From: a virus
Reading direction: 5' to 3' (one strand)
DNA: 52,836 nt
IMG/VR virus record: IMGVR_UViG_3300025738_000002
Below the pieces are notes generated by a model. That model worked only from the letters and a program-made list of their open reading frames with translations. It had not been told where the DNA came from and made no database searches. Positions 1 to 52,836 of this stretch are shown here, one piece after another. Each line of letters begins with the position of its first letter. Position 1 is the stretch's first letter. The position numbers were made by a program, and so were the translations under genes.

Positions 1-127
1 CCTAGCGAAATTGGGTGCCATTTCAGTTAACGAAATACGAAAGAAATTCGGTATGAATACAGTTGAAGGCGCTGACGTATATCAAGTCATAACCAACAAC
101 GCAGAATTTGGCACATGGGAAGAAGCA
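1..127. repeat. Terminal overlap copy 1, identical to nt 52710-52836 (circular closure)
   Basis: Both window ends were compared base by base and share an identical 127-mer. The repeat lies inside the portal reading frame. Confidence 0.95.
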
Positions 128-26630: not shown

Positions 26631-27580
26631 TTTCTGTCTGCGTAGTTTTCTTTTCTAACCTGATCTCTTGATTTACCGGTTGTCATCATCTGCTGCTTTC
26701 TGAAACCCCGACCTTGGAATTCATACGCATCCATTTCGAATGTTGGAAGGTGGTCATACTTATTAGTCCAAACGGTTTTCATCGCATTATAAGAGTTGTA
26801 TCCATGTACAAATGACGCATCAACGCACACCGCTAAATTAAATCTTTCTGCATTGACAGCCATTGCAGGTGAAGATGTTGCGGCCAACAGGCCAGCGCCG
26901 ATTAATAATTTCTTCATTTTAGTTTCCTTTAGTTTTTTAGTTTGCTTAACAACAGGCTTAACCGGTGCTGCAGTTTCTTTGTTAGTTGATAAAAGACTTA
27001 GCGCAATCGTTGTCGCTATGGTCAGCAGTTCAATAATCACAGCGGCGGCCACGGCAATTTGTTTACCAAACTGGTCAGCAATGCTATCCGTTGTTAATGA
27101 TGCACGGGTATCAATAAGAGATGCTATATCGTTTTCAATAGATGCAGCCTTGTCGTTTAACCGTTCACGCTTGGTTATGTAGTTAACAGGCAGGCCAGCC
27201 GCTTGCTCTGTCACACGTTTAGCTTGGGTCGAAAGCATCTCTATGCGCTGATTTATCGCTAGAAACTCTGCTGATTCCTTACGATTCTTATCGAATCCGG
27301 TATCAACAGCGATAAATGACGCTGTAAAGCTCATGGCGATCAACAGTAGTCCGATTGAAGATAACACATAGCCACGCATTCTTTTGTCCGCCTTGAACGC
27401 ATACAGGACGATCATTGGAAGAAAGAATTTGATAAATTCGAATAATATGCCGATCTTGCCTAATGTAGGCGATAGGTCTGACATAAATTGATAAGTAAGC
27501 GTTCCGCTGTAATAAGCAACTACAGCACCAGTGATAAAGATTGACGCTTTTAAAAAATTAGCATTATGTGTATCATTCAT
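26612..27580 (-). CDS. Multi-pass membrane protein with a central coiled coil and a C-terminal domain preceded by a signal-peptide-like segment
   Basis: Three N-terminal hydrophobic helices, a coiled coil (AINQRIEMLSTQAKRVTEQA...), a fourth TM helix, then MKKLLIGAGLLAATSSPAMA with its own SD. Confidence 0.65.
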   Translation of the reverse strand: MNDTHNANFLKASIFITGAVVAYYSGTLTYQFMSDLSPTLGKIGILFEFIKFFLPMIVLYAFKADKRMRGYVLSSIGLLLIAMSFTASFIAVDTGFDKNRKESAEFLAINQRIEMLSTQAKRVTEQAAGLPVNYITKRERLNDKAASIENDIASLIDTRASLTTDSIADQFGKQIAVAAAVIIELLTIATTIALSLLSTNKETAAPVKPVVKQTKKLKETKMKKLLIGAGLLAATSSPAMAVNAERFNLAVCVDASFVHGYNSYNAMKTVWTNKYDHLPTFEMDAYEFQGRGFRKQQMMTTGKSRDQVRKENYADRNCARFL

Positions 27581-27681: not shown

Positions 27682-27719
27682 GTAATAAAAATGGCCCGTA
27701 TCCGTTAAGACAGGGCCAT
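27682..27719 (-). terminator. Terminator of the par operon (ATGGCCC...GGGCCAT, then T-run on the minus strand)
   Basis: A 7-bp stem. On the minus strand it is followed by TTTTTATT. Confidence 0.6.
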
Positions 27720-27752
27720 TATACACACATCGTGTGCCAAAGGTAAAGCATT

Positions 27753-27771
27753 ACGCACACACCGTGTGTCA
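27753..27771. promoter_or_regulatory. Palindromic box (ACGCACAC-ACC-GTGTGTCA), downstream of the par operon
   Basis: Member of the GACACAC-N3-GTGTGTC family. A degenerate copy lies at 27722-27739. Confidence 0.6.
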
Positions 27772-27784
27772 TTTTCTTATAAAA

Positions 27785-27803
27785 TGACACACACCGTGTG
27801 TCA
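27785..27803. promoter_or_regulatory. Palindromic box TGACACAC-ACC-GTGTGTCA (8-bp arms)
   Basis: Perfect inverted repeat overlapping the stop codon of the ParG-like gene. Confidence 0.65.
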
Positions 27804-28175
27804 CTTCCATTCTGTACTTGTTTCTTCTTCTATTAACGCCTCAAGTCCGATGGCGATAGCTTGGATTAAAACGCCATGCGTTGTATTTGGTGATATATTG
27901 CTATTTGCAGCAAACCAAGTTGCAACTTCATAATGCCATTCAGGGCAACGGACATTTGTTCTAGTGCCGATTTGAGGCAGCGCCTTCTCATCGCTCTTCG
28001 CCTGAAAAGATTTAGCTAATGAATCATCGCGCCAAGGATACTTAACAGCATTCTCGCTACCCTTTGAATCATCAGAGCCAAGCATAAAAGTGCTTTCTTC
28101 ATTAGTTAATTCGTCATCAAGTTTGTTTTTATTCTTCTTCTTCATGATTCCGTCTAACGATGGTTTATTACTCAT
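27801..28175 (-). CDS. Putative centromere-binding protein (ParG/ParB analogue of a type-Ib system)
   Basis: Small and charged, with a disordered N-terminus. It is translationally coupled downstream of ParA. The C-terminal TRTNVRCPEWHYEVATWFAANSNISPNTTHGVLIQAIAIGL is compatible with a ribbon-helix-helix fold. Confidence 0.5.
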   Translation of the reverse strand: MSNKPSLDGIMKKKNKNKLDDELTNEESTFMLGSDDSKGSENAVKYPWRDDSLAKSFQAKSDEKALPQIGTRTNVRCPEWHYEVATWFAANSNISPNTTHGVLIQAIAIGLEALIEEETSTEWK

Positions 28176-28810
28176 TTGAAAATAACCTTAAATAGTGATT
28201 CAATTTCTTCTTTAGCTTGTTTGTTTTTCATCTCGTAAACACCTTCACCAGTTAAAAGGCAATCACGATAAGCCTTACGATCATAAATATTAGGCGCTAA
28301 TTCGAATACATCAATTTGCTCTAATATTTCTCGCCATTGTCTATTTTCATGTTTATTGGTAACGGATGTATTACACATGTTAAGCATAGCAACAGCCCTA
28401 AGCTTCGGGTTTATCTCTGCCACTTCTTCTAAAGCTTCCAACATGTCCGGTATAGTTCCAAAATCACCCTTTGACGGTTTGAAAGGCATGACCATAACAT
28501 CTGCCACCATCATTGCTGATCTCATTTCATCTGAGTTACGGCCGGCAACATCAACTACCACATGATCATACTTTTTAGCTAGTTCAACAATCGTGTTTTT
28601 AATCTTCCCGTATTTCTGAACTAAGGGGATATACTTTAAATCGCTTTCGTTCTCTTCTCTATCTTCCGTCCAGTTAGACGCTGTTTCCTGCCTATCAGAA
28701 TCTAATATCACCAAGCTAGACTTCATATTGTTTTTTACATGCGCGGCAAGATTTACGCATATAGTTGACTTACCGCAACCACCCTTTCTATTACCAAGTA
28801 AAATAATCAT
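28172..28810 (-). CDS. parA: ParA-family partition ATPase (small, type Ib)
   Basis: Deviant Walker A LGNRKGGCGKST lies at the N-terminus when the start is ATG 28810. The track start at 28870 would run through the operator palindrome. Confidence 0.85.
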   Translation of the reverse strand: MIILLGNRKGGCGKSTICVNLAAHVKNNMKSSLVILDSDRQETASNWTEDREENESDLKYIPLVQKYGKIKNTIVELAKKYDHVVVDVAGRNSDEMRSAMMVADVMVMPFKPSKGDFGTIPDMLEALEEVAEINPKLRAVAMLNMCNTSVTNKHENRQWREILEQIDVFELAPNIYDRKAYRDCLLTGEGVYEMKNKQAKEEIESLFKVIFK

Positions 28811-28839
28811 GATCCAGATCCCATTTATTAACCATAACG

Positions 28840-28858
28840 TGACACACAGTGTGTGTCC
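28840..28858. promoter_or_regulatory. Palindromic box GACACAC-AGT-GTGTGTC in the parA leader/promoter
   Basis: Perfect 7-bp arms. It lies just downstream of a TATTAT -10-like hexamer on the minus strand. Confidence 0.65.
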
Positions 28859-28891
28859 AATGTGTGCCATAATACACTAAATAGAGGCGTT

Positions 28892-28909
28892 TGACACACA
28901 CCGTGTGTA
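28892..28909. promoter_or_regulatory. Palindromic box TGACACAC-ACC-GTGTGTAA at the parA -35 region
   Basis: Same family. It overlaps a TGTCAA -35-like hexamer (minus strand), 16 nt from TATTAT. Confidence 0.6.
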
Positions 28910-28983
28910 ATTTATTGGTGTTTTATTGAAAATAAAGATCTTGATCAATTATAAAGGATCATATAGGATGCGTTTTGAAGACG

Positions 28984-29020
28984 AAAAAAAAGCCGACTCG
29001 TTAGAATCAGCTTTTCTTTT
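28984..29020. terminator. Bidirectional terminator (A8, then GCCGACTC-GTTA-GAATCAGC, then TTTTCTTTT)
   Basis: An 8-bp stem with two G-U pairs, flanked by an A-run and a T-run. Confidence 0.6.
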
Positions 29021-30039
29021 CAATCGTTTTTTACCAATCAAATAACTCATTCTTGGTCGGATCGTTTTATTTGAAAGGTTACAAGCAGCGTATAGATAGA
29101 GCGCTCAAGAGGTGAGCTGAATTGTATCTATAAGATGTTTTGTCCTGTAATTATATAGACAACTCCTCTTTTAGTCCAATTTAGTTTCAATAAAACCCCT
29201 CTAAAAAACATAGATGCCTGATATTTAAGGTATTTGATTAAATGTTTATCTATCTCTTTTGCAATGAATCCTACAACTTAGAGTGCTTTCGGGGTAAATT
29301 CCCGACTGTAGAACGTCAGCCAGCAAGACCGGATGATTGGAAAAACGATATTTTGTACCTAACCCAGAATGAGCGGATTAGGAAACGCGGTTGCAGTCGT
29401 AGTGGAAAGCGTGAGGGTAGCCCGTGGTAACGATAAACAGAACTGAGCAATATTAATGGCCAGCCACGGAAACACTAGACATGCCACAAACTCAAAAACC
29501 GCTCACAGGATCGATGTTAATAGTATTAACAGACAGTACCCAGTGTGGACGAACGAGGTCTAGGGCATTTTAATGATGCTGAATCGTCCAACTGTTAGCG
29601 CTTAAACGACTAACAGAGTTCACTTACAAAAGTGTACTAATAGTGGCAACCTTTAGCTAAATAGCTAAGGGTAGCTACGCTATTGAGTTTTGGGGGCCAA
29701 TCGCCGTCTTTTAGGTTTCTTTACCAATTAAACTAACGCATCAGCGTTACGTTACGGACGTTGACCACGATGGCAGCCCTTGCAGTTTTGACAAAGAAAC
29801 GTCAAAGCTTCCAGTGCTCATTATCAAACATAGTATCAAATCGATACTATGTCATGCACTGAAATAGATGTGAGACTGACTGAGAGTGTCGTGATTTGAG
29901 TTTTCTTCCTCAAATCTAGGCGACACGGTTTAGGCAGTGGGCAAGCGTAGCGCTGGCAATTTTAAATCAAAACGAATCAAACACATACAACATACATATG
30001 TTTATTGTTTAGCCTGTTTTAGATAAAATATGCTATATC

Positions 30040-30077
30040 GATCACAAACTGATCTCGTATTCGATCAATATCTGATC
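30040..30077. repeat. Four GATC sites spaced 11, 12 and 11 bp apart (helically phased Dam-type sites)
   Basis: GATC begins at 30040, 30051, 30063 and 30074, within alternating TCGATCA / CTGATC units. Confidence 0.8.
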
Positions 30078-31376: not shown

Positions 31377-32888
31377 ATGGAAAACAACATAATTCTCTAC
31401 AGGTCTTTTGTAGACGGATCGAACATCTCTAAGAAAGAATCAGAGTGGGTTAAGAATTCCGGCTTTGAAAACTTGGGTATTTCGAGGAGGGTAAATAGAT
31501 ACTGCCTCGATTCATTAATATGTATAAAAACATTTATCTATGAGCATTTATTAGAACCTATCACCTTAACCATCTTGATTAGCGAGATGAACTGTATTGA
31601 AAAGCATGACGCATCAAAGGTTTACGAAGAGCTTAAGTTGCTAATAGGAACAGGGGTTAAATTCTCAATCGTAGGTAATGAGACTATATACTCTAGAGAA
31701 AATATATCCGAAGCGATGAATCTCGTCTTGTGCATGTTCGAGCTTTGGGAAGCTAAAAGCGAATCAATCAAAAAATCAAATTCAGCAACTAAGATATGGA
31801 GTAAGAAAAGGGAACTTATAGAGAGGGGAGAAAAGCCAAAGCTCAAAAGTCCGTCATGGTTCTCTTATGACGATATTAATAAAAAATATATTTTAAATGA
31901 TTTATCTGTGTCAGTTAAATTATGCTTTGAAAAGTACCTAGAAACTAAATCAATGTCTGCAACCGCAAAGCTCCTTAATAAGTTAAATGTTAAGACTTTA
32001 GGGTCAGCTAAAGCGTGGGGCCAAACATCAGTTAGGCAGGTTTTAATTAGCCAATCATCATACGGCCTGCTTGAAGCTAGGACATTTCAGTACGATAATT
32101 TTTATCCAGCCGTCATTTCAAAAGAGCTATTTTATTTGGTTCAAGCTGAAATTAAAAAGCGGTCAACAAAAAACACCGAGCCAATAAAGGCAAATTTAAA
32201 GACGGCAAACCTGTTAACTAAGATCGCAAAATGTGGGGTTTGTGGCTCAAGCATATTCATGCACGGAAAAAGAAAAGAGATACTAAATGGCACCATTCAG
32301 GATTATCGATATCTCAATTGTTCTAGCCGTAAATACCATGACAAAAAATGTTCACTGCCTAGCTTTAGATATAAATACGTTGAGGCAATAGTCATCGTTA
32401 TAGCTGGACTGCTTGATAAAATGCCAACGCAAAACGAAACTATTGAACGTGTCGGATACCTTCAAGGTAGGCTGATGGCATTAAAAGAAAGTAAACGATT
32501 ACTAGAGTCTAAAATAGAAACTCTCACCGAAATAATATCAGAATTACCGAGTGATATTATCAAAGAGAAATTAAGAACTAACAGCATGGAATTAGAGGTC
32601 GCTGGCGATGAAATAAGCGAGGTTAAGCAGGAGATATCTGTAATAAATCAGGTTGGTGGCCGTGAAGATCTGTATAAGAAAATCACCGAGCTATCTAAAG
32701 ATTTAACCATTGATGATAATCGAGCGGAATTCATTATTAACCTGTCAAAGATATTTGATATCTGCAATTTTAACGAAGATGGTTCCATTTATATTCAGTC
32801 TATGAAAAATGAGATTAGAGTCAATAAAACCAAGGGCGACGTTAAAATTAACACCCCTGAATTTGAGCTGTCGGTTCACGTATCTTAA
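31377..32888 (+). CDS. Large-serine-recombinase-like protein with apparently degenerate catalytic motifs
   Basis: Recombinase-domain pattern (SMSATAKLLNKLNVKTLGSAKAWGQTSVRQVLISQSSYG), zinc-ribbon (CGVCGSS...YRYLNCSSRKYHDKKC) and coiled coil are present. The N-terminus has YRS instead of Y-x-R-x-S, and NCIEK where DRLxR is expected. Confidence 0.65.
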   Translation: MENNIILYRSFVDGSNISKKESEWVKNSGFENLGISRRVNRYCLDSLICIKTFIYEHLLEPITLTILISEMNCIEKHDASKVYEELKLLIGTGVKFSIVGNETIYSRENISEAMNLVLCMFELWEAKSESIKKSNSATKIWSKKRELIERGEKPKLKSPSWFSYDDINKKYILNDLSVSVKLCFEKYLETKSMSATAKLLNKLNVKTLGSAKAWGQTSVRQVLISQSSYGLLEARTFQYDNFYPAVISKELFYLVQAEIKKRSTKNTEPIKANLKTANLLTKIAKCGVCGSSIFMHGKRKEILNGTIQDYRYLNCSSRKYHDKKCSLPSFRYKYVEAIVIVIAGLLDKMPTQNETIERVGYLQGRLMALKESKRLLESKIETLTEIISELPSDIIKEKLRTNSMELEVAGDEISEVKQEISVINQVGGREDLYKKITELSKDLTIDDNRAEFIINLSKIFDICNFNEDGSIYIQSMKNEIRVNKTKGDVKINTPEFELSVHVS

Positions 32889-36988: not shown

Positions 36989-39856
36989 ATGGACATGTCA
37001 TCAAACAGGTACGTTATTGCAAAGGGCTTAGACAGGCTCAACATGTCCGGTGTTACACTCCGTTGCAATGATGCAACCAATGATCGCCGGACTGATTTGT
37101 CGGGGCAGTATCTCGCCCGTGAGATATTTACTCTTTCTTTCGGAAAGTGTGGTGAAGAGTGGATTTTCACCGATGGCAAGCGAACCATGCTCGATGCGGC
37201 GTACAAAACACATCAAGATACCTCACCAAGATTTACACCTATTGGGTGTCATTTTCAGCAAGCCGGTTCATATAATAAATTTATTATCACCGGAGGATTT
37301 GCGGATGGTGTGACCGTTTGGAATGCTCTTGGATGCCCTGATGATATCTGTGTATTGGCCATTGTCGGTGAGAAAAACGCGCCGAATTTGGTTAAGCAAT
37401 TGAAGCAAATAAGGCCAAATTCAAGCGTGACAGTTGCCTTAGATAACGACTCAAAATCACGAACCGGACAGCGCGTTTGCATGGAATCTGCGACCCGATG
37501 GGTTGTGCCTTCCGGCCCTGGTGATTGGAGTGATATTTTTTTAAAAAGTGGTTTAAAATCAGTAGCTAAGGAGATCGACCATGTGCGTGAACCGCTTCCT
37601 GACTTCAATATGTGGCAAATTAAGCCGCTAGAAAGTGATGATGGCCGCAACAAAAAGAAGATGATTGAACTGCTGTCAGCACTATCACCCGATGACCCTT
37701 TTATGATTGCCCGAACTGCCATAACCCTGCTGACTAGATGCCAGTCAGATATCTTTACAGTGCATGGTGGTGAGCGCCAGTTTTTTAACTGGTTGGTCTG
37801 CCTGAATCCGTTTATGTCGATGGAAACATACGAGTCATTAAAGCGTCGTATCGAGATAGTTAGCCGTGACATAGCACGAAGCGCAAAAGAACAAATCAGC
37901 ATAAGCAAAGAGGCATCAAGCCGTCACAACCATACCAAATATAAAAACATATCAGGGGCCGTTAATTCAGCTCTTAATCACTTTGGCCTAACAATGGTTA
38001 AGGCACCTCATGCCGGTGGTAAAACTTCCGTGTTGGGCATTCCGTTTTTTAACGAGGCTAAAGCGCGTGGTGAATATATAACAGTTCTTGCACACCTTAG
38101 AACGCTGGTTGCTGACCTAGTTAATAAGTTCAAAACTAACCATTACGATGATGTGAAAGAAGAATCTATAATACTTGGTTTACAGCTTACCGAGCATACA
38201 AACAAGTACACAGAGATAGCCACTTGCCTACCATCAATCGTTAAGGCCATCGAGAAATTAGTAGACAGAACACAGGTACTAATCATCGATGAGGTTAGCC
38301 AAGTTATTCGAATGGTCACGGCTAGGCTAGGCGGAATGAATAACATTGCCGTGTATGAAAAGCTTAAACAGATTATTCGAAACGCTGCCTCAGTTCTTGT
38401 TCTAGACGCTGACTTGGACACGGCAACGCTTGAATTTTTAGAGCAGTGCAGACCTAACGAGCGATTTAATATTATCTCAGTGGCCAACCCTACGCCGCTT
38501 GAATCTGGCCTGTCATGCGACTGGTTCTATGGGAATGGTTATGGTGATTATGTAGCGAACAGCATTAAAACATCACTGGAAAACGGACAGCGCTCGATCA
38601 TAGCTTGTGACTGGTGTAGCACCTCTGAAAAGCTTCACAGCATGTTATCTAACGAATACCCCGATAAATGCTTTCTACTCGTAACGAGTAAGACCACTGA
38701 CAAGCCATACAAACCAGCATCTAAATTCATGGCTGACGCTAACAACGAAGCAGCTAAATACGATTGCATCATTCACAGCCCATCAATCCGATCAGGTCTG
38801 TCGATTACCGATATTAAATTCGATATCGGATTTGCACTGTTTGGCGGTAGTTCGATTATTCCACAAGATTGTATACAAATGTTAAGGCGGGCAAGGATGG
38901 TTAAGCACTGGATCATAGGTGTTGCAGAAACATATAGCGCACTGCTAGATGATGAGTGGTTGCTCAACGAACAGCAAAAGATATTAGGCGCTGAATCAAA
39001 ATCGAATTACGGCGTGATGGCCAGCGCCCACGACTTCGACCGAATCAAAAACAAAATCGAGTCGAAGGAGTCACGCGCCAAGAATAATTTCTCTGCGTAC
39101 CTGTACGTGATGCTAGGTGTATATGGAATCAAAGTGAATATGATTGATGTATCCAAGGTTGACCAAGCCGATTGCTTCGAGCAGTTCAGCAAAGAATATA
39201 ACGAAGAATTCAAGGCCGCAATTATCGCCGCTGATATGCCAACCGATGACGAATACGAACGGCTTACAGATTTAGGCAATCCAACGCTGGTCGATGATGC
39301 TGCCATCGCCTGTTACATCATTTGCAAATCATGCGGCATTGAATCGGTTTGTGATGACTGGTTATCATTTTATCGTGATCGCGGTGTGGTTAGAGCTAAA
39401 CGAATGATGTGGTCGAAGTACTTAGTCGAACTATCCGAAGACGATAGTGAAGCCTCAAGCCTTCACAGTTTTAATAAAGTCCGTGGCGCAGAAGTTAAAA
39501 AGATGATGGTCGTTATAGATTACCGATATCAAGACGATTACGAACTAACCGAGCGTAACGCAGAAAGACTCATCGAACACATGTGGGAACGTAAAGACCG
39601 TTTAATATTTCTTGGCCTGTTATCGCCACAATATTCGACCAAGCGATACGAGACTAAATCAGTTGAAAAGCCACGACCAAAGAAGCCAATTAAATTCTCT
39701 AAAGATACGTTGTTAAGGTTCGGCGTGATGACGAATACAAAACGACGCAGAACCGGAGGCGATGAAGCGCGACCATATTTACTAACTAACCACGAAAAGC
39801 AAAGCATGATCGACCACGTTGTTGAGCATCAATTCAGGCACCTAAATAATCATTAA
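36989..39856 (+). CDS. Toprim-domain primase fused to a P-loop NTPase (replicative primase/helicase or origin-binding protein)
   Basis: Toprim-like GEKNAP...VALDNDSKSRTGQR, Walker A APHAGGKTS and Walker B LIIDEVSQ. Confidence 0.6.
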   Translation: MDMSSNRYVIAKGLDRLNMSGVTLRCNDATNDRRTDLSGQYLAREIFTLSFGKCGEEWIFTDGKRTMLDAAYKTHQDTSPRFTPIGCHFQQAGSYNKFIITGGFADGVTVWNALGCPDDICVLAIVGEKNAPNLVKQLKQIRPNSSVTVALDNDSKSRTGQRVCMESATRWVVPSGPGDWSDIFLKSGLKSVAKEIDHVREPLPDFNMWQIKPLESDDGRNKKKMIELLSALSPDDPFMIARTAITLLTRCQSDIFTVHGGERQFFNWLVCLNPFMSMETYESLKRRIEIVSRDIARSAKEQISISKEASSRHNHTKYKNISGAVNSALNHFGLTMVKAPHAGGKTSVLGIPFFNEAKARGEYITVLAHLRTLVADLVNKFKTNHYDDVKEESIILGLQLTEHTNKYTEIATCLPSIVKAIEKLVDRTQVLIIDEVSQVIRMVTARLGGMNNIAVYEKLKQIIRNAASVLVLDADLDTATLEFLEQCRPNERFNIISVANPTPLESGLSCDWFYGNGYGDYVANSIKTSLENGQRSIIACDWCSTSEKLHSMLSNEYPDKCFLLVTSKTTDKPYKPASKFMADANNEAAKYDCIIHSPSIRSGLSITDIKFDIGFALFGGSSIIPQDCIQMLRRARMVKHWIIGVAETYSALLDDEWLLNEQQKILGAESKSNYGVMASAHDFDRIKNKIESKESRAKNNFSAYLYVMLGVYGIKVNMIDVSKVDQADCFEQFSKEYNEEFKAAIIAADMPTDDEYERLTDLGNPTLVDDAAIACYIICKSCGIESVCDDWLSFYRDRGVVRAKRMMWSKYLVELSEDDSEASSLHSFNKVRGAEVKKMMVVIDYRYQDDYELTERNAERLIEHMWERKDRLIFLGLLSPQYSTKRYETKSVEKPRPKKPIKFSKDTLLRFGVMTNTKRRRTGGDEARPYLLTNHEKQSMIDHVVEHQFRHLNNH

Positions 39857-40659: not shown

Positions 40660-40740
40660 GTCGGTGTAGCTCAGTTGGTAGAGCGTGAGGGTTTTTAATA
40701 GTCTCCCTTAAGGTCGTTTGTTCAATTCAAATCACCGGCG
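40660..40740 (+). tRNA. tRNA-like gene with canonical acceptor, D and T arms but a 13-15-nt anticodon loop (contains the Lys-UUU-type loop TTTTTAA plus an insertion)
   Basis: Hand fold: GTCGGTG/CACCGGC acceptor, GCTC-AGTTGGTA-GAGC D arm, TGAGG/CCTTA anticodon stem, loop GTTTTTAATAGTCTC, variable AGGTC, and GTTTG-TTCAATT-CAAAT T arm. No CCA is encoded. Confidence 0.55.
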
Positions 40741-40745
40741 CAAAA

Positions 40746-49525: not shown

Positions 49526-49852
49526 ATGTATAACAACATGTCAGAGCGGCAAAGTGAGCTGTTCGCGGCGGTTAAAGACCACCTTAGCGACGACAACGTA
49601 ATTGATAATTCATTGGCCGCTAATATGGCGATCCTAATGGACACCATCGAGAAAGCAAACGCGCACGTAAATGAAAACGGCGCGGTGTTAGAACAGACCG
49701 GCGATAAAGGTCAAACCAGATTTATAGCTAATCCAGCCGTCGCCCAGCGGGACGCAGCAATTAAGCAAATCAATGTGCATGTACGCACACTCAAGATTGA
49801 AACTCAGGTTTTGGAAGAAGAAAGCGAACTAGCTAAATTCCTTAAAACATAA
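49526..49852 (+). CDS. Terminase small subunit, P27 family
   Basis: GQTRFIANPAVAQRDAAIKQINVHVRTLKIE fits the P27-family C-terminal pattern. The gene immediately precedes large terminase. Confidence 0.7.
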   Translation: MYNNMSERQSELFAAVKDHLSDDNVIDNSLAANMAILMDTIEKANAHVNENGAVLEQTGDKGQTRFIANPAVAQRDAAIKQINVHVRTLKIETQVLEEESELAKFLKT

Positions 49853-49867
49853 TTAACAGGGGGATTA

Positions 49868-51634
49868 ATGGCCATTAAAAAACTGCACCACAAAAAACTA
49901 ACTCAATACATTGATTCCTTAAATATCCCAGAGTTCAGCCTGCTAGACCAGCATCCGAAGCAAGTACACCGTTACGCTGCAGATATCGTTAACGGAAATA
50001 TATTGGCATGTAAGTGGATCAAGCTGGCTGCAGAACGACACTTTAATGATCTCTACCGTTCACAGCATGACAGCTCATATCCATATGAATTTAGCGAAGC
50101 AAAAGCAAAGAAGATTATCGACTTCTACAAGTTCATTAAGCACACCAAAGGCGTACTTGCTAGAACGTCAATTCAATTACTACCTTGGCAACAATTTACG
50201 CTAGGTTCGCTAATTGGCTGGGTTCGTAAAGATAATGGCCTGCGCCGGTTTAAGCAGTCAAATATTTGGGTTGCACGTAAAAATGGCAAATCAACGATTG
50301 CCTCCGGTTTAGCGCTTTATCTGCTGATTGCTGATGGTGAAACTGGTGCGGAAATTTATTCGGTTGCCACAAAAGTCGATCAAGCGAGGATCGTCTGGGA
50401 CGATGCTGTTCGTATGCTTGGTATGTCAAAACTTAAAGACATGCTGAAAATTCGTAAAGGCCGTAACGAAATCCTTAGCGACGAAACATTTTCAAAATTT
50501 ACCCCACTTTCCAGTGACTCAAACTCTCTAGATGGCCTTAACATCCACTGCTTCATCGCTGACGAAATTCACGCATGGAAAGATAGGAATCTATATGGTG
50601 TGCTTGAAACGGCCACAGGGTCGCGTACACAGCCAATCGCGTTCACAATTTCTACAGCCGGTTGGATACTCGATGGCGTTGGTAAAGATATTTTTGACGA
50701 TGGCCTAAGCATTTTACAAGACTACGGCTGTGAAGAAGAGATATTCACGCTCAACTATACGATCGATGATAAAGACAAATGGAACGATCCTACCGTATGG
50801 ATCAAGAGTAACCCTTGCCTTGGTGCTTCGGTCCAAGTTGATGACATTTTAAGGCTGTGTCGTAAGGCAGAACGACTAACCAGTGAGCGCCCCAACTTCC
50901 TGACCAAGCGACTTAATATTTTCGTTAATAATGCGGAAGCATATTTCGATCAAACTAAGGTTTACGCTTGCGCAGACCCGACAGCCAAGATTGAAGACTT
51001 CAAAGGCCGTGAATGCTACATAGGCATCGATTTTGCCGAATATGTGGATTTAGCGTCAGTTTGCTACCTTTTCCCGAACTCTAACGGCAGTTTTAACGTG
51101 TTTTACGACAATTTCCTCCCACATTCTGCATTAGACAAAGTGTCCGAGCAGATGAGGCAACGATATTACGCATTAGACGATGAAGGTTATCTAAATATCT
51201 TGAGTGGCGACGTAATGGACCACGCCACGCTCGAAGGTGTTCTACGTGAAGCGAAAGAAAATTACGATTTAAAAAGTATTGCATACGATCCCTACCATCT
51301 AACCCAAATCGCCAACCAGTTAGAGAAAGAACGTTACCCGATGGTTTCAGTTACCCAAACAATAGCGAACTTATCCGAAGCGGCCAAGCTCATGTCTAAG
51401 TACATAGAGAGTAAACAGCTAATTTACAACGGTGATAAGACCTTTGAATGGTGTTGCTCGAACACTATGGCCAAAGTCGATGACAAGGCCAACGTTAAGC
51501 TATTTCGTGAAAATCCAAGGGTACACAAAATTGATGCGGTAATCGCGACTGTGATTGCGATTTCGATGGCTGAGATACAAGAGAAGCCTGTTGACTCGCC
51601 GTACAAGCAGAGAGGTTTCAGAGTGCTTTATTAA
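49868..51634 (+). CDS. Terminase large subunit (Terminase_1 / HK97 gp2-like)
   Basis: LLPWQQFTLGSLIGW...IWVARKNGKSTIASGLALYLL (Walker A region)...EIYSVATKVDQARIVWDDA. Confidence 0.9.
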   Translation: MAIKKLHHKKLTQYIDSLNIPEFSLLDQHPKQVHRYAADIVNGNILACKWIKLAAERHFNDLYRSQHDSSYPYEFSEAKAKKIIDFYKFIKHTKGVLARTSIQLLPWQQFTLGSLIGWVRKDNGLRRFKQSNIWVARKNGKSTIASGLALYLLIADGETGAEIYSVATKVDQARIVWDDAVRMLGMSKLKDMLKIRKGRNEILSDETFSKFTPLSSDSNSLDGLNIHCFIADEIHAWKDRNLYGVLETATGSRTQPIAFTISTAGWILDGVGKDIFDDGLSILQDYGCEEEIFTLNYTIDDKDKWNDPTVWIKSNPCLGASVQVDDILRLCRKAERLTSERPNFLTKRLNIFVNNAEAYFDQTKVYACADPTAKIEDFKGRECYIGIDFAEYVDLASVCYLFPNSNGSFNVFYDNFLPHSALDKVSEQMRQRYYALDDEGYLNILSGDVMDHATLEGVLREAKENYDLKSIAYDPYHLTQIANQLEKERYPMVSVTQTIANLSEAAKLMSKYIESKQLIYNGDKTFEWCCSNTMAKVDDKANVKLFRENPRVHKIDAVIATVIAISMAEIQEKPVDSPYKQRGFRVLY

Positions 51635-51642
51635 GGAAGGTT

Positions 51643-52836
51643 ATGTTTAATAAATTAAAGAAATGGCTGGGCCATGAAGAGAAGGCTTACACCGTAGACG
51701 AGTATATCCGAAGAACAACGCAAAACAGAGAATTCGCCGGCGTTAACGTTTCCCCCAGTACATCCCTAAGACAGGCAGATGTGTACGCCTGCATAAAAAT
51801 CATTGCAGAAAGTATCGGTATGATGCCGTTGAAGGTATACAAGCAAGATGAAGATAATTTAGTTGAAGTGCCTAATACGCACCGGCTATACAAAATCTAT
51901 TCAAAACGACCTACTGACTTCGTAACCACGCAAGAGCTAATCGAAACCATAATAACCAACCTACTTACATTCGGTAATTCGTATTGCTACCTGAATCGCC
52001 GTCCTGATGGGAAAGTCGTTGAGATAATCCCATTCCAGCATCCCAACTCTGTTGCGGTGGATATGGACAATCAAGGCCGTGTTTACTACACGTATTCGAC
52101 GAATGACCATCAAACGCGAAACAAGATTTTTGTACAAGATGAGATCTTGCATATCAAGCTTAATTCGCAGAATGGCTACGAAGGTATGTCACCAATCGAT
52201 AAGGCTGCTGAAAGCATCGGTATTAGCATAGCTAACGCCCGTTACACGTCAAAGACCTTTGAAAATGCGGCGATGACTTCCGGTGTCCTGTCAGTGGGTA
52301 ATGACCAAGAACTTACCGACGAACAGTACTCACGACTGCAGGATTCATACGAAGATTACCGAGGTGTTAACGCAGCCGGTAAAATTTTGATTCTTGAAGG
52401 TGGAGCTACGTTCCAAGCGACTAGCCAATCAAATCAGCAAGCTCAAGTTCTTGAGTTGGCCAAGTACAGCAGGGAGCAAATAAGCTCAATTTTCAGAGTG
52501 CCTACGAACATGCTAGGTGATACCGCAGCGCAGACCTACAACAACGTAGAAAACAACGCGATTAACTTCCTTCGTCATACATTACTGCCACACATCACCA
52601 AGATTGAAACGGCACTAAATGACCTTATCGATAACGGTTACGAAGTGAAATTCGACACTAACGAGTTCTTGCGTGGTGACAGTAAAACTCAAGTGGAAGT
52701 ATGCGACGGCCTAGCGAAATTGGGTGCCATTTCAGTTAACGAAATACGAAAGAAATTCGGTATGAATACAGTTGAAGGCGCTGACGTATATCAAGTCATA
52801 ACCAACAACGCAGAATTTGGCACATGGGAAGAAGCA
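51643..52836 (+). CDS. Portal protein, HK97 family (N-terminal about 398 codons; the ORF runs off the window and continues at nt 128-229)
   Basis: ATG at 51643 follows RBS AAGGAAGG. My hand translation is open to the window end (MFNKLKKWLGHEEKAY...REQISSIFRVPTNMLGD...). The gene lies directly after large terminase. It is missing from the ORF track because there is no stop inside the window. Confidence 0.9.
   Translation, partial: MFNKLKKWLGHEEKAYTVDEYIRRTTQNREFAGVNVSPSTSLRQADVYACIKIIAESIGMMPLKVYKQDEDNLVEVPNTHRLYKIYSKRPTDFVTTQELIETIITNLLTFGNSYCYLNRRPDGKVVEIIPFQHPNSVAVDMDNQGRVYYTYSTNDHQTRNKIFVQDEILHIKLNSQNGYEGMSPIDKAAESIGISIANARYTSKTFENAAMTSGVLSVGNDQELTDEQYSRLQDSYEDYRGVNAAGKILILEGGATFQATSQSNQQAQVLELAKYSREQISSIFRVPTNMLGDTAAQTYNNVENNAINFLRHTLLPHITKIETALNDLIDNGYEVKFDTNEFLRGDSKTQVEVCDGLAKLGAISVNEIRKKFGMNTVEGADVYQVITNNAEFGTWEEA
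52710..52836. repeat. Terminal overlap copy 2, identical to nt 1-127
   Basis: Same 127-mer as the window start. The unique genome length is 52,709 bp. Confidence 0.95.

Follow-up and report, generated by a model that had tools for sequence, protein, structure and literature searches.

Probable partition cassette of the window

The DNA analyzed here (IMG/VR virus record IMGVR_UViG_3300025738_000002, 52,836 bases; the whole stretch is called "the window" below, and its coordinates are used throughout) carries, in a short leftward block between its structural and early gene modules, a parA gene, a small overlapping gene for a 124-amino acid (aa) protein, and five 19-bp palindromic boxes that lie on both sides of this gene pair. 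These elements probably constitute a type-Ib partition cassette like ParF/ParG and pB171 par2, carried by a siphovirus-like genome that is complete at about 52.7 kb and assembles circularly, and the phage itself is most likely a low-copy circular plasmid prophage. The diversity of type-Ib partner proteins and of their centromeres is notorious, and there are many phage-plasmids; the surprise for the specialist is only moderate because this type of system is well known. What is new is the family of the partner protein, the 19-bp palindromic boxes, and the natural exchange of the cassette among sister phages. The parts of the cassette are as follows.

28172..28810, minus strand: parA (ATG at 28810, stop codon 28174–28172), encoding a 212-aa type-Ib (ParF-like) Walker ATPase
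27801..28175, minus strand: gene for the 124-aa candidate centromere-binding and repressor protein (ParG/ParB analogue), overlapping the parA stop codon (ATGA)
28892–28910: box U1, one mismatch, TTACACAC-GGT-GTGTGTCA on the minus strand, overlapping the parA −35 element
28840–28858: box U2, one mismatch, covering the start region and leader
28861–28868: extra half-site GGCACACA, beside U2 and over the start region
27785–27803: box D1, perfect, including the stop codon of the 124-aa gene
27753–27771: box D2, three mismatches
27721–27739: box D3, three mismatches
28869..28897, minus strand: candidate parA promoter GTGTCA-17-TATTAT, from a promoter scan
27686..27720, minus strand: Rho-independent terminator of the par operon, a hairpin of −17.1 kcal/mol (z −3.7) with a U-run, directly after D3

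ParA ATPase

The parA product begins MIILLGNRKGGCGKST, and its deviant Walker A motif (KGGxxK[ST]) starts at residue 9 (residues 9–16 are KGGCGKST), so that the type-Ib ParA with an N-terminal deviant Walker A motif that a preliminary description of this DNA had proposed is borne out. The protein aligns over its full length with TP228 ParF (4dzz; E = 6.6e-14, residues 3–210) and matches NCBIfam NF041546 (ParA_partition, ParA family partition ATPase; 1.8e-42, positions 1–202 of 203), phrog_164 (2.2e-41), and the Pfam families MipZ, AAA_31, and CbiA; its score of 145 bits on NF041546 is under the equivalog cut-off of 180. It has no N-terminal helix-turn-helix or regulatory domain, and its size is within the range of about 200–230 aa of type-Ib ATPases. 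An alternative parA frame of 232 aa would cross box U2; the corresponding gene calls in two of the relatives introduced below (L001 and L016) are 212 and 211 aa. Judged by these matches, its membership in the ParA family is established and it is a small ParF-like type-Ib ATPase.

Homologs of this ParA are present in at least 5000 plasmid records, the best being 44–48% identical (plasmids of Vibrio, Thiothrix, Agarilytica, and Photobacterium). The best phage matches are those of D6 (42%) and of SSU5 and its Klebsiella relatives (32%), followed by Zymomonas elements, KS14, and phiSG1; D6 and SSU5 are named as phage-plasmids and KS14 is listed as one (PMC7969092).

The 124-aa partner protein

The start codon of the 124-aa gene lies inside the parA stop codon (ATGA), and the gene is therefore translationally coupled to parA, as had been supposed. 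The pair of parA and partner gene is found in five lineages. The 124-aa homologs are 62% identical in L003/L004, a syntenic relative; 54% in L001/L002, a 53-kb syntenic contig binned with a Robiginitomaculum metagenome-assembled genome (MAG); 46% in L016/L017 (PYOL01000034.1, an unrelated, non-syntenic element of ~37 kb); and 33% in L018/L019, whose homolog is the most diverged. The family is rare: a profile search of 1.84 billion cluster representatives gave five members, two of which are low-complexity matches in long proteins; tblastn found no match in 50,697 phage and 72,556 plasmid records; and in searches for further relatives IMG/VR gave none, GTDB genomes gave only the known NORP54 MAG contig, and the Joint Genome Institute (JGI) metagenome collection gave only L003.

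The protein is charged, with basic and acidic residues. Its N-terminal half is basic, variable, and disordered, and contains conserved SDDxKG and FPW motifs, and the alignment shows a conserved C-terminal part, LPQIGTRTNIRCPEWDYEVAxWFAKNS..NTTHGVLMQAIAIGLEALIE, in which the motif IGTRTNIRCPEW precedes the helices. AlphaFold predicts only two helices (79–91 and 99–122), which follow an unstructured conserved segment; the confidence by the predicted local distance difference test (pLDDT) is low, at 48 when the full protein is modeled and 60 when only the domain is. Arc, ParG, and other ribbon-helix-helix proteins show the succession of extended strand, proline, helix, loop, and long helix. The C-terminus of the 124-aa protein has the conserved extended segment TRTNIRCPEW and then the two predicted helices (pLDDT 48–60), and the 142-aa partner encoded by a sister phage from Moritella sp. 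PE36 (see below) has a match to RHH_5 below threshold (E = 0.23). A ribbon-helix-helix fold is what we infer for the 124-aa protein, and no more than that, because the family, PDB, hhalign, AlphaFold, and Foldseek searches gave nothing usable.

Boxes, promoter, and terminator

The five boxes follow the consensus TGACACAC-N3-GTGTGTCA; two of them are on the parA promoter, and the other three occupy the interval from the stop codon of the partner gene to the terminator. When GACACAC-N3-GTGTGTC is sought with up to three mismatches, the window has nine matches, compared with 1.24 ± 1.15 in 100 dinucleotide shuffles, none of which reached nine. The inverted repeats reported earlier, upstream at 28892 and 28840 over the −35 element and leader and downstream at 27785, 27753, and (degenerate) 27722, are thus present, and they are conserved as described in the next section. 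The promoter scan places GTGTCA-17-TATTAT at 28897–28869, so that the −35 hexamer is the right arm of U1, and the −10 element is kept in relatives as TACAAT and TATAAT. U1 and U2 are 52 bp apart, and D1 to D2 and D2 to D3 are 32 bp each, which are approximately whole numbers of helical turns.

Two other box-like sequences were seen in the window. An isolated near-perfect box, TGACACAC-GCT-GTGTGTCT, is at 49230–49248 in a repeat-rich region upstream of terS and may not belong to the system; its candidacy as a conserved third centromere was rejected, as the homologous position in a related phage (L012) has no box though the flanks align. A degenerate box-like sequence, TGACACCCAATAGGTGTAA (TGACAC-N7-GTGT), lies at 37233–37251 inside the replication protein gene and is identical in L001 (496–514), which may reflect coding conservation only.

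Conservation and exchange of the cassette with its boxes

In L001 and L003/L004 the boxes lie at the same places as in the window (U1 to U2 is 52 bp in L001 and L003, D1 abuts the stop codon, and D1 to D2 is 32 bp), and the remaining intergenic DNA has diverged. U1 is kept at the equivalent place in L001, L003, and L016. The L016/L017 cassette has as its neighbors a gene for a helix-turn-helix antitoxin-like protein, a Dam methylase gene, and a HicB-like gene; L016 has two boxes upstream (one perfect and one with two mismatches) and two perfect boxes downstream, the latter beyond terminators and before an unrelated gene. L018/L019 keep the TGACAC core, but there the units are AAAGTGTCAT, with about five upstream and three to four downstream, and the putative DNA-reading strand of the partner protein is GLKTNIRL, versus GTRTNIRC. 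Thus, the homolog with changed boxes also has a changed strand, and the comparison establishes, as far as sequences can, that box and protein co-vary.

The isolate assembly of Moritella sp. PE36 contains a sister phage contig (L008; ABCQ01000032.1, 50,709 bp) whose early genes are 54–55% identical to those of the window and whose non-coding region upstream is in part near-identical. The corresponding position is occupied by another type-Ib cassette (L008 6650–7990), with a 229-aa ParA (32% identical) and the 142-aa partner, and this cassette is flanked upstream and downstream by CTACAAACATAC repeats. The window's type of box was not found in the PE36 phage, nor the CTACAAACATAC type in the window. 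Since it is with the cassette that the repeats vary, and not with the remainder of the phage, the protein that binds them must be encoded within the cassette; ParAs of this type lack a specific DNA-binding domain, and the small partner protein is thus the remaining candidate. The cassette and its cognate repeats have been exchanged together among sister phages. The divergently oriented upstream gene was considered as a part of the module and rejected, as the proteins encoded there in the window, L016, L018, and the PE36 phage are unrelated.

These comparisons show, at the sequence level, that the boxes are functional and not due to chance: they are conserved, and they move with the cassette or change along with it. 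As far as comparison can show, they are repeated cis sites specific to a cognate protein. It is very improbable that the palindromes are instead RNA or DNA hairpins (terminators or attenuators), or chance products of CA/GT-rich sequence, and not protein sites. D1 as RNA could indeed fold at −14.7 kcal/mol and is then followed by AUUUUAU, and a terminator scan marks U1 and D2 as hairpins; but the observed number of boxes is never reached by shuffles, some conserved copies are single half-sites or direct pairs that are unable to form hairpins (D2 of L001, and the half-site with U2), the sites are phased in helical turns, and the box sequence varies with the protein of its cassette.

Genome structure and replication protein

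An exact direct repeat of 127 bp is present at the ends of the window (1–127 and 52710–52836), which is typical of the overlap left by circular assembly. Among JGI metagenomes, seven contigs with an identical 124-aa protein were read, and the two shown, from different samples, are both 52,832 bp with different start points. The terminal repeat and the differing contig starts indicate that the window is a complete phage genome, about 52.7 kb long and circular in assembly. It is of marine origin and has an HK97-like siphovirus gene set, in which the portal was recognized in relatives. Its modules are the following.

49526–51634: genes for TerS and TerL
0.2–25.6 kb, plus strand: prohead protease, major capsid, adaptor, major tail protein, tape measure, distal tail protein, and J-like fiber
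28870–25682, minus strand: short block between the structural and early modules, holding the par cassette
30.2–40.6 kb, plus strand: early module with an H-NS-like N-terminal-domain protein, the large serine recombinase homolog, Sak4, SSB, a superfamily 2 (SF2) helicase, YqaJ exonuclease, the 955-aa Rep, and a resolvase
31377–32888, plus strand: the 503-aa large serine recombinase homolog, with Recombinase and Zn-ribbon domains, the only recombinase of the window that is a candidate for an integrase

The replication protein (Rep, 955 aa, 36989–39856) scores 200.8 bits on NF042913 (plasmid replication protein, CyRepA1 family; cut-off 200) and matches phrog_4913 at 2e-218. It is 23–26% identical to the RepA proteins of N15, VP882, phiHAP-1, phiKO2, and PY54, and equally so to CyRepA1 proteins of Acinetobacter and Pseudomonas plasmids. 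The open reading frames (ORFs) scanned included no tyrosine integrase, transposase, or protelomerase. Of what a phage-plasmid screen looks for, namely a complete phage gene set together with plasmid replication or partition genes (PMC7969092), the window has TerS/TerL, protease, capsid, tape measure, and tail genes, a CyRepA1 Rep, and ParA. The earlier suggestion of a phage-plasmid lifestyle therefore gains a plasmid-type Rep, its likeness to the RepA of N15 and VP882, and ParA relatives in D6, SSU5, KS14, and phiSG1. The sequence evidence supports the phage-plasmid reading well without proving it, and the phage is probably maintained extrachromosomally.

Comparison with known systems

The cassette resembles ParF-ParG-parH of TP228 in its small ParA, which lacks a DNA-binding domain and aligns with ParF over its full length; in the small downstream partner, which is predicted here to be flexible in its N-terminal half and to bind DNA through a short C-terminal part; and in sites that overlap the promoter, implying autoregulation. 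It differs in that the partner has no detectable similarity to ParG (hhalign probability 0.2) and is 124 aa long versus 76 aa for ParG, and in that a few 19-bp palindromes lie on both sides of the operon, whereas parH is an upstream array of 4-bp boxes. In pB171, parC1 and parC2 consist of 17 and 18 direct repeats of 6 bp. The par2 locus (parC1-parA-parB-parC2) is like the present cassette in having repeat clusters over the promoter of a type-Ib parAB operon and again beyond its 3′ end; its layout is taken from construct descriptions (PMC4270457), and it was with this arrangement that the two-sided sites had originally been compared, a comparison to which the layout found here conforms. Unlike par2, the window has two to three long palindromes per side, and the proteins are not detectably related beyond ParA.

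The omega protein of the Firmicutes plasmid pSM19035 is a ribbon-helix-helix repressor and centromere binder that acts on 7-bp heptads, in direct and inverted orientation, at three separate promoters, and has a small ParA partner. The cassette would be like this delta-omega system in having a repressor that doubles as the centromere binder with a small ParA; the heptads, the three separate promoters, and the Firmicutes plasmid set omega apart, and PDB searches with the 124-aa protein detected no sequence similarity. Among phages, D6 likewise has a small overlapping gene after parA, and D6, SSU5, KS14, and phiSG1 hold the best phage ParA matches. The phages of the N15/VP882 type share a RepA homologous to the 955-aa Rep, but no protelomerase was found in the ORFs of the window, and its genome assembles as a circle. 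The window differs from all of these in its HK97-like marine siphovirus structural module and in its lack of nucleotide matches to phage or plasmid records (megablast found none in phages for the 3 kb around the cassette or for 1–25,000, and none in plasmids for 25,001–50,000), and its partner protein is absent from the phage and plasmid records searched with tblastn.

If the lifestyle is as proposed, the phage-plasmids, most examples of which come from enterobacteria, Vibrio, and a few other clades, gain a marine siphovirus lineage. Sister phages that have different type-Ib cassettes, with different repeats, at the same locus, and the homologs with matching box changes, amount to a natural experiment on centromere specificity, and a structural or binding study of the rare, unannotated partner family would define a new pair of centromere-binding protein and site. 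At 1.25 kb, the cassette is also a compact candidate vector stabilizer for marine gammaproteobacteria.

Proposed mechanism and points that weigh against it

The anatomy of the cassette and the established type-Ib systems (TP228 ParFG, pB171 par2, and pSM19035 delta-omega) suggest the following mechanism, in which the identity and fold of the box binder, autoregulation, activity in partition, and an episomal state are what we infer. Half-sites that contain TGACAC would be bound by dimers of the 124-aa protein, two dimers to each 19-bp palindrome, whose arms are 11 bp apart center to center as in Arc-type operators. The five boxes lie in phase along one helical face, to either side of the gene pair, and would nucleate a partition complex; the disordered basic N-terminal half of the partner could stimulate the ATPase of nucleoid-bound ParA, and this stimulation would in turn lead to equal spacing of plasmid copies. 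Occupancy of U1 (on the −35 element) and of U2 with the half-site (on the start site) would repress the parA promoter.

Several observations weigh against a partition cassette on a plasmid prophage, and they concern the partner protein, the downstream boxes, and the lifestyle of the phage. The 124-aa protein has zero matches in Pfam, PHROGs, NCBIfam, and PDB sequences (phmmer and profile); hhalign against ParG gave a probability of 0.2; the AlphaFold models have low confidence; and Foldseek against PDB returned nothing. Profile searches with both proteins placed ParA (NF041546, phrog_164, and Pfam) and left its partner without a match, and the likeness to ParF/ParG that the preliminary description drew stands for the ATPase, through the ParF match, whereas none of these searches supports it for the partner. 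As to the boxes, D1 has the hairpin potential described above, and D3 overlaps a promoter-like TTTACC-18-TATAAT; with their position in the 3′ untranslated region, these features make a transcriptional role of the D boxes possible, instead of or besides a centromere role.

It is accordingly conceivable, though unlikely, that the main function of the cassette is transcriptional regulation. In that case the 124-aa protein would be a repressor that controls the parA promoter and read-through or transcription into the block of morons at 27580–25682, and the ParA-like ATPase would have no role in stable inheritance but, for example, one in positioning replicating phage DNA during lytic growth or in host interference. 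U1 and U2 lie exactly on the −35 element and the start site, as such a module would have them; the sequence TGTGTAT(A/G)ATGGCC at the promoter-like element of D3 is kept in L001 and L018; and some phages that carry par genes are not known as plasmids (PMC7969092). However, a strong terminator directly 3′ of the putative downstream −10 element makes a promoter there unlikely, and the downstream boxes of L016 are beyond the terminators and before an unrelated gene. The two-sided arrangement recurs with other repeats in the PE36 cassette, as centromeres would, and the relatives of ParA are overwhelmingly on plasmids. A centromere function of the boxes, with autoregulation of parA, is thus favored.

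The lifestyle is the third area of doubt. The presence and conservation of the recombinase homolog (54–59% identity across four phages) speak for integration, no repressor or lysogeny switch was identified in the ORF scans, and circular metagenome assemblies are equally expected from virion DNA. Partition genes also occur in phages reported to be integrated or virulent (P88 and the BigBertha group; PMC7969092). The phage might on these grounds be an ordinary integrating temperate phage, with the recombinase homolog an active integrase that has an atypical N-terminal domain, and with par of transient use (in pseudolysogeny or before integration) or a recent passenger. We regard this as quite improbable. 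The 503-aa protein does keep its Recombinase and Zn-ribbon domains in all four phages, a distant homolog (P0012, 36% identical) lies at a prophage-chromosome junction, and P88 shows that coexistence of both states is possible (PMC7969092).

Against an active integrase, residues 1–174 of the protein have no Resolvase (PF00239) match even at E ≤ 10. In the alignment of the four-member clade there is R9-x-F11, an invariant Phe two positions past an invariant Arg, and the DR..R motif is not conserved. Position 11 is presumably where the Ser nucleophile would be expected (R-x-S), a placement of the motif in this protein that we take from general knowledge of the family, and an invariant Phe would thus replace it. 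The recombinase gene of the PE36 isolate is internal to a 21.5-kb phage-only stretch on a stand-alone 50.7-kb contig of about phage size, which IMG/VR lists as a viral genome (that this contig is phage from end to end rests on its length and synteny), and host flanks are present in none of the contigs listed for the window phage or in those of its relatives. The protein is possibly a non-catalytic, exapted recombinase. The earlier statement that no integrase with an intact active site is visible accordingly holds insofar as there is neither a Resolvase match nor R-x-S; it needs the amendment that a 503-aa large serine recombinase homolog, possibly inactive, does exist. Extrachromosomal maintenance as a low-copy plasmid prophage is the interpretation preferred here.

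Non-coding elements near the cassette

Two non-coding elements lie upstream of parA, and GATC sites cluster around them.

28983–29178, minus strand: candidate small RNA of about 160 nt directed toward parA (29143 to 28983), with a conserved sigma-70 promoter, TGGACT-17-TATAAT, at 29178–29150
29190–29960: structured non-coding region of about 770 nt, with higher G+C and many hairpins (fold z −3.5 on the minus and −5.4 on the plus strand)

The candidate small RNA comprises a conserved stem-loop, TCAAATAA/TTATTTGA, whose loop, UCCGNCCAAGA, is itself conserved, and a terminator in which the changes are compensatory. L001, L003, and the PE36 phage have it too, and a similar hairpin and terminator precede par in L016 and L018. 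A search for targets of the loop found no trans site with at least 12 contiguous complementary bases, and an 11/12 match at 29362–29373 was rejected as a target since it is not kept in relatives. The larger structured region shares a 5′ block (GCCTAAACCGTGTCGCCTAGAT...) and a co-varying hairpin with L001 and the PE36 phage; L018, with its short intergenic stretch, lacks the region. Rfam has no match to it at any threshold, and for a 24-nt block of it the sole IMG/VR match was the PE36 phage, the metagenome collection giving none.

GATC is under-represented in the genome (143 observed and 195 expected) and is clustered at 28937–28960, at the parA start (28811–28820), and at 30040–30077. Just upstream of box U1, GATCAAGATCT is kept in all syntenic relatives (L001, L003, PE36, and L018), including the phage with the swapped cassette, and it is extended to TGATCAAGATCTTTATTT in all of them but L003, where the first position differs. 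The GATC clusters suggest Dam/SeqA-linked control or an origin-like element.

A broader reading, which we offer as tentative and doubtful in its entirety, is that the window and its relatives belong together as circular marine phage-plasmids of Moritella-like Dam+ gammaproteobacteria, a group not described before. Integration would have been abandoned in this group, the recombinase having decayed to a conserved, non-catalytic DNA-binding protein, and an N15/CyRepA1-type Rep would be combined with an exchangeable plug-in partition module. This module might comprise the conserved upstream small RNA, the cluster of Dam sites, the type-Ib ParA, and a family of orphan centromere-binding proteins that recognize the 19-bp TGACACAC-N3-GTGTGTCA palindromes on both sides. 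The structured element of about 0.8 kb, which has no Rfam match, could then be a new large RNA for the control of copy number or immunity.

Transfer RNA genes

In this part of the window, tRNA-Ser(GCU) and tRNA-Met(CAU) are the only two tRNAs found by the Rfam tRNA model at its gathering score. Adjoining them, ARAGORN reports a tRNA with the anticodon UUA at 40660–40741 on the plus strand, which would read the stop codon UAA and is in this respect suppressor-like.

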